Positions 33,789-35,094 of a DNA stretch of 64,000 bases are shown here, piece after piece (positions within the stretch are counted from its first letter, which is position 1; every line of letters starts with the position of its first letter). Under the pieces are notes generated by a model. That model was not told where the DNA came from, searched no databases, and saw only the letters and a list, made by a program, of their open reading frames with translations. The position numbers were made by a program, and so were the translations under genes. This DNA is from Escherichia phage vB_EcoM_OE5505, in the sequence record NC_054926.1, one strand, 5' to 3'.

Positions 33789-33898
33789 TTTATTCTCCTT
33801 TGTTTGTGTAAGATAATACTATCACAAAGGAACTATACTGTAAACAACTTTATGCAATCTTTGGAAAATAAAAAAGGACTCCCGAAGGAGTCCTCAAC

Positions 33899-34075
33899 TT
33901 ATGCTTTCTGCTTACCAAAACGAGAAGCATCATCTCGAAGAACCGCACGTGCTCGACGCATGATCTTCTCAACAGTTTGATTGATACGAGAGTTCGACAC
34001 ACGCTTGTAGCCAGCGCGTTTAGAATCACCAACTTTCTTTTCAACTGCTTTCTTTGCTTTAACTTGTTTTGCCAT
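33899..34075 (-). CDS. Small basic protein (58 aa from ATG at 34075; alternative ATG at 34117 gives 72 aa)
   Basis: K/R-rich ORF (MAKQVKAKKAVEKK...); the choice of start is uncertain. Confidence 0.4.
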   Translation of the reverse strand: MAKQVKAKKAVEKKVGDSKRAGYKRVSNSRINQTVEKIMRRARAVLRDDASRFGKQKA

Positions 34076-34362
34076 TATAAATTCTCTTTTAAATGAAAAT
34101 GCAGGACTTATTGGCATTGCCTGCGCAAGCCCTCAAGGGGAACATAGGTTTTGAATATTTACCGACAGGATAACCATAAACCTCGTCAACATACCACCAA
34201 GACTTACACAGATAACACTTTTCTGACGCATGATAGTAACATTCAAGAGGTACACCATAAAACTGCCGGGGTCTTAAAACTATAATGATTCGCAAATCAT
34301 TAATCAGACAGTTCGATGGCTCCTCGATTTAGCTCACACTAAGGCAGTGAATCTCCAATAAA

Positions 34363-34611
34363 TTACTTCAGTGTTACCACAAAGTGACGAACTGCTTTTC
34401 GTGCAGCAGAAGCCAAAGGCTTAGCATATTTAAGTTCATCTTTTTCCTGAAGCTCAGCAGCTAATGCAGTTTGAGCAGGATTCAGATGTTTGAAATAACG
34501 CAGGATTTCAAGAGCTTCGGCTTCAACATCAATAGATGCGCCATAGTTTTCGTGACCATTATTCCATGCGTTTCGTTGCAGTTCAAGAGCGTGTTGTAAT
34601 TGTTTAATCAT
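34363..34611 (-). CDS. rIII: rIII lysis inhibition accessory protein
   Basis: 82-aa ORF, T4 RIII length; sequence recognised. Confidence 0.9.
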   Translation of the reverse strand: MIKQLQHALELQRNAWNNGHENYGASIDVEAEALEILRYFKHLNPAQTALAAELQEKDELKYAKPLASAARKAVRHFVVTLK

Positions 34612-34750
34612 TTAAAAATTCTCGTTAGAGATTAAAACTCGGTAGTCACGTTCTTCTGAATTTCATCTTCTTTCGACAGATCTCTCAGTTGTAGACTACC
34701 ACATAGAATTGTTCGGTTAACTTATTATTCCGACATCCAATTCATATTAT

Positions 34751-34758
34751 TATTTATA
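34751..34758 (-). promoter_or_regulatory. Late promoter core (TATAAATA on the minus strand) upstream of rIII
   Basis: Plus strand TATTTATA is TATAAATA on the minus strand, directly after the gene 31 stop, about 140 nt upstream of the rIII ATG. Confidence 0.4.
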
Positions 34759-35094
34759 TCACTTATAAAGACACGGAATAGCTTTATAGTGACAGGTAAC
34801 GAATTTTTGTTTAATTTCTTTTGGCTGCTTAAGACCCAGAGCTACAAAAGGATGCGGAACATTTCGAATTTGACCAACTGGAAGAGAAGTCAAATCACCA
34901 ACTTCGCAGAAACCTTCAGGAACATCAGGACCGACAGAGTGAACTACACACAGTTCAGGAACTTCACCTTGGACACGTTTACCGATAATAAGTCCTGATT
35001 CTGTAACTTCTTCATCACCCGCCTGTGCGGGTTCAGAAACTAAAATAACATATTCACCGACAGCACGAATTGGTAGCTGTTGTACTTCAGACAT
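34759..35094 (-). CDS. 31: Co-chaperonin gp31 (GroES-like)
   Basis: 111-aa ORF, T4 gp31 length; sequence recognised. Confidence 0.9.

Follow-up and report, generated by a model that had tools for sequence, protein, structure and literature searches.

The genes rIII and 30.9 of Escherichia phage vB_EcoM_OE5505 are separated by a spacer of 287 nt, which we show here to be a non-coding RNA region, conserved in structure on the sense strand of rIII, confined to a single locus and lying within one transcription unit. The spacer (34076-34362, minus strand) was analyzed in a stretch of 64,000 nt of the phage genome (NC_054926.1), a segment of a T4-like (Tequatrovirus) genome which we call the window and to which all positions refer unless another record is named. 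It is best explained as a row of six independently folding RNA stem–loop modules (A, B, C, M1, D and E, in 5′ to 3′ order) which are kept folded by selection. The comparison with related phages also shows it to be a recombination hot spot.

The spacer had been singled out in an earlier note, made from the sequence alone, as a non-coding, structured and possibly recombinational region. This first observation is real and its reading is largely right. Perfect 8-bp hairpins with a loop of 3-8 nt are, however, also obtained when the gap is shuffled by dinucleotides (50 of 2000 shuffles, 2.5%), the 64-kb window holds 25 perfect 8-bp hairpins (~0.11 per 287 nt), and the folding of the whole gap compared with shuffles gives a modest z of -2.05. 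Taken by itself the sequence is therefore unusual only to a mild degree, and it is the comparison with relatives that carries the case.

Folded modules of the spacer

We extracted every rIII-30.9 spacer from 40 loci with rIII relatives (54-100% protein identity) and from annotated records. The percentages of paired cells given below were judged against controls in which the partner strand was slid; the shuffle control ignores the relatedness among the sequences. Module C was scored by folding each homologue and with a hand-made pairing table, since MAFFT had misplaced the gap in its outer stem. The features of the spacer are as follows:

34334-34350, minus strand: module A, a 4-bp hairpin TCAC-(9 nt)-GTGA (covariation)
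34243-34327, minus strand: module B, an 85-nt composite stem–loop with three helices (covariation and minimum-free-energy folding)
34283-34302, minus strand: tip of module B, TAATGATT-tgcg-AATCATTA (sequence and covariation)
34192-34238, minus strand: module C, a hairpin TACTATCA...TGGTGGTA around an inner CAGA...TCTG hairpin (folding and homologues)
34147-34192, minus strand: module M1, a bulged 6-bp hairpin with an A/U-rich tail (covariation and covariance model)
34130-34140, minus strand: module D, a small G-C hairpin CCCC-TTGA-GGG, then CTTG (by eye)
34101-34124, minus strand: module E, a stem GCAGG-CAATGCCAATAAGT-CCTGC (covariation in one lineage)
34091-34100, 34084-34088 and 34073-34075, minus strand: U-rich tract, weak Shine-Dalgarno sequence AAGAG and ATG of 30.9, after module E

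Module B consists of an outer helix TCGAGGAG/CCTCTTGA, a middle helix CCAT..CTGTC/GGCAG..ATGG and the apical 8-bp hairpin. Its 27 pairs, five of them compensatory, are formed in 99.1% of the cells compared with 35-57% in the slid controls. Four conserved G-U pairs are possible only on the rIII sense strand, and the RNA strand is therefore the rIII sense strand. The minimum-free-energy fold of the single sequence (-24.5 kcal/mol, z = -3.0) agrees with these three helices in all essentials. The hairpin at the tip was already described in the earlier note; it exists but had been placed at 34288-34307, 5 nt away from its actual position. Two of its eight pairs are changed on both sides in Mosigvirus-type phages (TATCGATT...AATCGGTA).

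The hairpin of module M1 (34164-34187) has the form GAC-g-AGG, an 11-nt loop and CCT-GTC, and is followed by the tail GGUAAAUAUUCAAAACC (34147-34163). Four of the six pairs are changed on both sides and the covariation score is 0.465 versus 0.13 in shuffles, the stem variants being GAC/GTC, GTC/GAC, GGC/GCC and GTG/CAC in one half and AGG/CCT, TGG/CCA and TAG/CTA in the other. The loop and the tail are conserved in sequence, and an AUGAUG at the start of M1 is widely conserved. The module is thermodynamically weak (z = +0.5). A covariance model of M1 has a single match in the window with 66.9 bits, the next best scoring 16 bits. In the related phages the model finds one match in each locus having an rIII-30.9 spacer, always inside the spacer, and none in lineages without it. 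By these matches M1 is a single-copy element tied to the rIII-30.9 locus. A leader peptide starting from the M1 AUG was considered and rejected: it is not conserved, the reading frame varies from 3 to 34 codons and, as judged by eye, the AUG is missing in three loci (L027, L029, L047).

Module A stands near the 5′ end of the spacer and is closely preceded by a GGAG (34353-34356), which itself comes after the rIII stop codon. The module is paired in 92% of the cells versus 23-69% in the slid controls, and two of its four pairs are changed on both sides (TCAC/GTGA, TCGC/GCGG, TTGC/GCAG). Module C folds with -10.2 kcal/mol (z = -1.9), its outer stem has two G-U pairs, and its distant homologues take up the same fold with other stems (GGCTCTA/TAGAGCT and CAGC/GCTG). 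In module D the loop varies and the stem is kept (CCCTTCGAGG, CCCTATGGGG, CCCTTTATGGGG); the form CCTCTTAGAGG of locus L036 is compensatory as judged by eye, which is weak support, and the minimum-free-energy fold of the window favours a competing pairing that is not conserved in relatives.

The stem of module E, also named in the earlier note, was found as described there and lies 26 nt upstream of the 30.9 ATG. Two of seven pairs (8-31 and 10-29) are changed on both sides in L024 and L039 (AACTGG/CCAGTT), where the sequence of the 14-nt loop is kept. An alternative pairing AGGGCUUG/UAAGUCCU favoured by minimum free energy was rejected, as the changes in L024 give an A-A mismatch. Also rejected was a long-range helix, seen in the minimum-free-energy fold of the whole gap, that would close it by pairing UUUAUUGG behind the rIII stop codon with CCAAUAAG in the E loop: Mosigvirus-type phages lack the 5′ partner and yet keep the E loop. 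Considered as a terminator, module E offers a 5-bp stem (four G-C pairs) with a 14-nt loop, followed by AUUUUCAUUU; it folds weakly and is not called by a scan that requires a loop of 3-8 nt. The equivalent hairpins of other lineages look more terminator-like, and every spacer-bearing lineage has a hairpin, then a U-rich tract and then the ribosome-binding site of 30.9. In the lineages outside the T-even and Mosigvirus types (L024, L026-L039, L047) a CUCC stands 5-6 nt upstream of the 30.9 Shine-Dalgarno sequence GGAAG and can pair with it. This unit follows terminator-like hairpins of at least four unrelated sequence types, so that the architecture is kept and the sequence replaced.

Taken together, the covariation analysis which the earlier note had suggested yields compensatory pairs in A, B, M1 and E, and both hairpins that it had named carry such substitutions on the transcribed strand, with the G-U pairs fixing the strand. 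The structures of B, M1 and A stand above the shuffled or slid controls; that of E is weaker and comes from one lineage.

The spacer is widespread. A megablast search with the region retrieved 780 phage records, 506 of them at an identity of at least 95%, and the spacer itself was found in 771 phage records. Between the window and Mosigvirus-type phages the spacer is 90-92% identical, compared with 85-87% for rIII DNA, 63-66% for rIII third positions and 77-81% for 30.9 DNA. Constraint on the spacer would explain this, as would a horizontal transfer that is easier than for the adjoining sequences; substitutions that preserve the pairing speak for a constraint on folding. The Rfam scan proposed in the earlier note, run at permissive thresholds, matched no family: with Rfam 15 the best hit to the spacer was the DUF2815 RNA at 14.5 bits, far from the gathering threshold of 41.2 (E = 5.8), and a scan of the 2.5-kb region gave nothing in the spacer. 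ARAGORN predicted no tRNA or tmRNA in the window between 33000 and 35500 or in five related loci, the spacer has no similarity to rnaC, rnaD or the tRNA region of T4, and blastn-short found no second copy in the 64-kb window.

A cassette site and a larger RNA in relatives

At the site of module C, phages with 100% identical rIII proteins carry nothing, module C or a structured element of 136-147 nt. Counts in the phage collection are 261 records for module C, 252 for the T4-type junction and 404 for the large element. These three alleles at one position in otherwise ~99% identical phages, together with a permuted copy of the spacer in a tRNA cluster, bear out the suggestion of the earlier note that this could be a recombination site. 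The comparison with T4, also suggested there, shows that T4 lacks 44 nt of the spacer of the window (34195-34238); its junction GAATGT|GAATGATG looks like a microhomology deletion. RB33-type phages are without A, B and C and have a spacer of 121 nt, and distant lineages combine M1, D, A-like and C-like modules in differing orders.

The large element, which is absent from the window, is a structured RNA CGGCAAGTGCATGC...GCTAACGGTGTGCAACAGATAAGAG between rIII and 30.9. One representative is:

L005 (Escherichia phage Pinarejo) 637-772: large element, the equivalent site being 34195-34238 of the window

It also occurs in L007, L009, L019, L020, L022, L026, L028, L030-L038, L044 and L051-L068. As a single-copy element it shows 85-100% identity among Tequatrovirus, Mosigvirus and T4-like phages infecting Klebsiella, Enterobacter, Serratia and Edwardsiella. 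The sequences fold into eight helices with 97.7% of the cells paired versus 27-42% in the slid controls, 17 of the 44 pairs are compensatory, and there are invariant unpaired stretches. When compared with 500 shuffles, four of five measures were reached by none of them and the fifth by one. The element has no match in Rfam even at permissive thresholds, a 20-mer taken from it was not found exactly in any of 185,579 bacterial and archaeal genomes, and no description of it was found in the literature searched.

Structured modules are also found on both sides of rIII. The spacer between gene 31 and rIII contains a long hairpin GGTAGTC...GACTACC with inner CTGA/TCAG and ATCT/AGAT stems (34647-34694, minus strand), which folds with -16.4 kcal/mol (z = -2.5). 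In L028-L038 a homologue of this module (87.5% identity over 48 nt, E = 2e-8) has its place between rIII and 30.9, immediately before the latter, and its stems GGGAGC...GCTCCC, CCGA/TCGG and AACT/AGTT still pair. The same structured module therefore lies on different sides of rIII in different phages. In L041, a distant lineage, a 44-aa 30.9-like gene (1726-1869) follows rIII after ~10 nt, without a structured spacer; the modules have therefore been acquired by a subset of the T4-like phages and are not needed for 30.9 expression.

A circularly permuted copy of a T4-type spacer was found between tRNA-Gly and tRNA-Gln in L048 (1292-1636; IMGVR_UViG_3300045988_074297) and in L049 (IMGVR_UViG_2974717474, 149,506 bp). 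The insert comprises the spacer with the ribosome-binding site and ATG of 30.9, fused to the last 27 codons of rIII, and is flanked by a 13-bp direct repeat TTTATTGGAGATT (1292-1304 and 1624-1636 in L048). No intact rIII was found on the two contigs. The first 13 nt of the spacer equal the 5 nt before the tRNA-Gln of this lineage plus the first 8 nt of the tRNA. A permuted copy between repeats would be the signature expected of mini-circle formation and integration, by analogy with what has been proposed for the PeSL (promoter-early stem–loop) elements discussed below. We also considered module A as the decayed 5′ half of a tRNA-Gln, given the shared TTTATTGGAGATT, and rejected this, since the covarying stem is not the D-arm and there is no wider similarity. 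To sum up, the sequences compared show modules that have been gained, lost and reordered between phages, with the position of module C as a cassette site.

Transcription unit, coding potential and annotation

On the minus strand the gene order is cd, 31.2, 31.1, 31, rIII, the gap, 30.9, a terminator and 30.8. The surroundings of the spacer are as follows:

34759-35094, minus strand: gene 31 (open reading frame)
34363-34611, minus strand: rIII, 82 aa, upstream cistron (open reading frame; T4 rIII is 100% identical by tblastn)
34076-34362, minus strand: rIII-30.9 intercistronic spacer, 287 nt, non-coding (between the flanking open reading frames)
33899-34075, minus strand: 30.9, 58 aa, very basic, downstream cistron (open reading frame; T4 annotation)
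33874-33895, minus strand: intrinsic terminator closing the ...31-rIII-30.9 unit (9-bp stem and T-run, by scan)

The layout of the open reading frames bears out the extent of the gap as given in the earlier note. Its statement that neighbouring genes lie 0-60 nt apart was somewhat overstated, the local spacers measuring 56 nt (31.1-31), 147 nt (31-rIII), 110 nt (30.9-30.8) and 68 nt (30.8-30.7); the rIII-30.9 gap is still the largest. The protein encoded by 30.9 matches PHROG 1427, labelled 'unknown function', and has no significant match in Pfam, NCBIfam or PDB.

A late promoter TATAAATA is located upstream of rIII at 34751-34758. In the T4 record X54536 promoters are annotated before 31, before rIII and after 30.9 only, and the terminator after 30.9 is also annotated in wV7 and ASO78A. 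Within the spacer (34076-34362) promoter and consensus scans gave no sigma-70-like early, MotA-type middle or late promoter consensus, and the terminator scan, which requires a loop of 3-8 nt, detected no terminator. These results speak against an independent small-RNA gene, one of the possibilities raised in the earlier note. By inference, the spacer is best read as a part of the ...31-rIII-30.9 mRNA that is transcribed but left untranslated between the two cistrons, with the terminator at 33874-33895 as the end of this mRNA. On the plus strand TATAAATT (34076-34083), one mismatch away from the late promoter TATAAATA, abuts the start of 30.9 and points into the spacer, where it is followed by an ATG open reading frame of 26 aa (34093-34173; 49 aa in T4-type phages). 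This antisense combination is probably due to chance.

The only reading frame to which the earlier note had drawn attention, a Cys-rich TTG frame of 68 aa without a Shine-Dalgarno sequence (34089-34295), is present as described. Its C-terminus is frameshifted by 1-nt indels in ASO78A, teqsoen and wV7, phages that are >97% identical to the window, and in T4 the frame is truncated through the 44-nt deletion. The conceptual peptide belongs to no Pfam or PHROG family. All three sense frames of the spacer contain stops, and the longest open reading frame varies in frame, strand and sequence among 43 distinct spacers, none of which has an intact homologous gene, let alone a conserved one with a normal start. 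With no conservation of the frame, no normal start or Shine-Dalgarno sequence and indels that are not multiples of three, the frame does not behave as a protein gene, in agreement with the earlier reading of the gap as non-coding, and the rIII-30.9 spacer is not a coding sequence. An ORF-like frame LRIIIVLRPRQFYGVPLECYYHASEKCYLCKSWWY is retained in many relatives.

In the first T4 record (X17657) a 97-aa 'ORF D' extended across the gap; later T4 records give 72 aa and then 58 aa for 30.9. The ATG of the 72-aa form lies in the loop of module E without a Shine-Dalgarno sequence and is ACG or GTG in relatives. Among the annotated records inspected, only wV7 has a separate coding sequence in the spacer, a TTG-start 'hypothetical phage protein' of 201 nt. 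Other labels are more diverse. 30.9 is called 'putative 11.1 kDa protein' in teqsoen and is annotated with 72 aa in ASO78A; the withdrawn ORF D is the likely source of the former label, as its calculated size fits. A '1,4-alpha-glucan (glycogen) branching enzyme, GH-13-type' is placed over the spacer in T4_ev240, T4_ev151, AV122 and EC128, HX01 has an antisense coding sequence of 26 aa and Pinarejo several tiny ones. Public annotation of the spacer is inconsistent and partly spurious, and in the records inspected it has no RNA or regulatory feature, only blank or dubious protein labels.

Possible roles and comparison with known systems

We see about an even chance that the spacer is a cis-acting intercistronic mRNA structure which also serves as a recombination scaffold. 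The modules would act in cis on the mRNA: the stable hairpins of B and C would shield the rIII segment from 3′ exonucleases and keep the long untranslated stretch folded, and M1, with its weak hairpin, conserved loop and A/U-rich tail, would be the recognition site for a protein or an endoribonuclease. Since M1 is conserved though weak, with loop and tail kept, a recognition site fits better than a passive hairpin. The E hairpin, the U-tract and the weak Shine-Dalgarno sequence would dampen read-through and translation into 30.9; the recurrence of hairpin and U-tract before the 30.9 ribosome-binding site in every spacer lineage, with CUCC/GGAAG in several, suggests such an attenuation. On the DNA level, the conserved modules flanking a variable site would supply homology for cassette exchange between co-infecting phages.

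Several points weigh against this view. The low thermodynamic stability of M1, D, E and A (z about 0) should make them poor exonuclease blocks or terminators in the window. T4 without C, RB33-type phages without A to C and L041 without any spacer indicate that most of the spacer is dispensable for viability and for 30.9 expression. The outer helix of B is invariant among 13 aligned sequences, the covariation of E comes from one lineage only, several helices rest on few independent events, and the representative sequences for the alignments were chosen by the analyst. Finally, the literature searched contains no data on transcript ends, stability or translation of the spacer and no demonstrated function, and therefore every functional step is inferred.

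The modules could instead be cut from the polycistronic transcript and act in trans as small RNAs of their own stability, such as decoys, guides or gp30.9 partners; the ~140-nt element of the other phages would then be one of them and the window would carry a reduced set. We regard this as possible, with a smaller but real likelihood. M1, conserved despite its thermodynamic weakness, suggests specific recognition; its loop and tail are conserved in sequence, and so is the E loop CAATGCCAATAAG across lineages with different stems. The large element in its 404 records, in which several helices with 17 compensatory pairs out of 44 are combined with unpaired stretches that do not vary, is typical of a folded working molecule. 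Wherever a locus has a spacer, its modules immediately precede 30.9, and one lineage has a copy of the spacer in its tRNA cluster, from whose transcripts stable RNAs are processed. Against this picture stand the lack of any predicted promoter or terminator of its own inside the spacer, the absence of an Rfam family and of similarity to T4 rnaC and rnaD, and a variable order and content of modules, unlike a single defined RNA. It is unlikely that the spacer serves mainly as a PeSL-like scaffold for recombination at the level of DNA, with cassettes mediating homologous or mini-circle exchange and hairpins being terminator leftovers without RNA function. Such a scaffold would account for three alleles at one site in phages with identical rIII proteins, for the shuffled order of modules, one of which lies upstream of rIII in the window and downstream elsewhere, and for the permuted copy flanked by TTTATTGGAGATT in L048/L049, the expected mini-circle signature (PMC4122927). 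The promoter half that defines a PeSL is absent, however, the modules are single-copy and not dispersed over the genome, and the sense strand, with its compensatory changes and its G-U pairs, points to selection for RNA folding and not for DNA homology alone.

We consider it improbable that the spacer is a decaying pseudogene or neutral junk whose apparent conservation comes from close kinship or recent horizontal spread. The persistence of the frame LRIIIVLRPRQFYGVPLECYYHASEKCYLCKSWWY in many relatives, the indels of several sizes and the dispensability of large parts (RB33, T4) would agree with decay, but the spacer is more conserved than the synonymous sites of rIII, its substitutions are concentrated in compensatory pairs and M1 is retained even where the rIII protein is only ~70-77% identical; moreover, no intact homologous gene exists in the 43 distinct spacers and the conceptual peptide has no protein family. 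Very improbable indeed is a hidden small protein gene, be it the 68-aa TTG frame, an extended 30.9 of 72 or 97 aa, a frame from the AUG(A/U)UG of M1 or the antisense frame at 34093-34173. Coding sequences of these kinds are annotated (201 nt in wV7, the 72-aa 30.9 in ASO78A, the 97-aa ORF D in X17657, the antisense 26 aa in HX01) and the AUGAUG of M1 is widely conserved. Each candidate meets its own difficulty, however: the TTG frame is frameshifted among near-identical phages, the start of the 72-aa form is neither preceded by a Shine-Dalgarno sequence nor kept as ATG, ORF D was withdrawn from later T4 records, the M1 frame varies in length and loses its AUG in three loci, and in the antisense frame neither the length nor the C-terminus is the same in window-type and T4-type phages.

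More speculatively, the rIII-30.9 junction might be a dedicated non-coding RNA locus, a docking site for exchanged structured RNA cassettes (M1, C and the ~140-nt RNA), perhaps working with gp30.9 or against a host factor; we hold this to be rather doubtful. If it were true, the window would be one allele and T4 a further-reduced one, which could explain why classical T4 genetics missed the locus.

T4 is the reference phage, yet its spacer is without an RNA feature in the records inspected. The chain of covarying structures described here is a concrete experimental target, with ready genetics and with natural deletion alleles (T4, RB33-type) as controls. The ~140-nt RNA at the same site in relatives, which is without an Rfam match, adds to the interest of the spacer, and many of the records with this element come from phages of Klebsiella, Enterobacter and E. 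coli. Should the RNAs influence the fate of the mRNA, gp30.9 or the host, T-even biology would gain a layer of RNA, and they would also matter for the annotation of related phage genomes.

Among known systems the PeSL elements of T4-type phages are one obvious point of comparison. A PeSL is a terminator hairpin directly followed by a sigma-70-like early promoter and recurs at many loci (Arbiol et al. 2010, PMC2839356; Comeau et al. 2014, PMC4122927); in the T4/PST pair the promoter reads TTTACW N17 TAYWAT, and a mini-circle mechanism has been proposed (PMC4122927). Like a PeSL, the rIII-30.9 spacer is a conserved intergenic stem–loop region in a variable part of the T4-type genome, situated at break-points of insertions, deletions and replacements and ending with the Shine-Dalgarno sequence and start codon of the next gene (34084-34088 and 34073-34075), and the circularly permuted unit between direct repeats in L048/L049 fits the mini-circle mechanism. 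The spacer differs in that no early promoter lies downstream of its stem–loops, and in that it has six distinct single-copy modules instead of one recurring hairpin. In the adjoining 30.9-30.8 spacer (33789-33898, minus strand) the strong terminator at 33874-33895 is followed by an early-promoter-like site TTTACA N17 TAGTAT (33816-33844), and this spacer, unlike the rIII-30.9 spacer, fits the terminator-promoter pattern of a PeSL.

As an array of stable hairpins between cistrons, with conserved structure, no promoter and a weaker ribosome-binding site downstream, the spacer resembles the intercistronic REP stem–loops. REP hairpins between malE and malF of E. coli set differential mRNA stability within the operon. 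REP sequences are, however, dispersed repeats, whereas the modules of the spacer are unique to one locus, and a block to exonucleases would require a stability that only B and C reach.

T4 itself controls translation initiation by mRNA structures, as at the gene 25/26 junction, in gene 38 and in the early transcripts of e and soc, and by the operators of gp43, gp32 and RegA (PMC3014915). The spacer shares with these a hairpin beside the ribosome-binding site of a small gene, and in the lineages outside the T-even and Mosigvirus types a CUCC...GGAAG pairing over the Shine-Dalgarno sequence; M1, with its short bulged stem, conserved loop and A/U-rich tail, resembles the operators. In contrast to the operators, M1 is located ~70 nt before the ATG of 30.9, clear of the ribosome-binding site, and in contrast to the e and soc hairpins those of the spacer contain no late promoter. 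The T4 RNAs rnaC and rnaD are likewise phage-encoded structured RNAs of unknown function, and they are processed from longer transcripts. A link to the T4 tRNA cluster is given by the copy of the spacer in the tRNA cluster of one lineage and by the 13 nt shared with the tRNA-Gln start. The spacer differs from rnaC, rnaD and the tRNA cluster in having no sequence similarity to them, no tRNA by ARAGORN and, in module A, a stem that is not the D-arm. The spacer combines known kinds of elements, being a structured intercistronic mRNA segment and a T4-type intergenic cassette at the same time.

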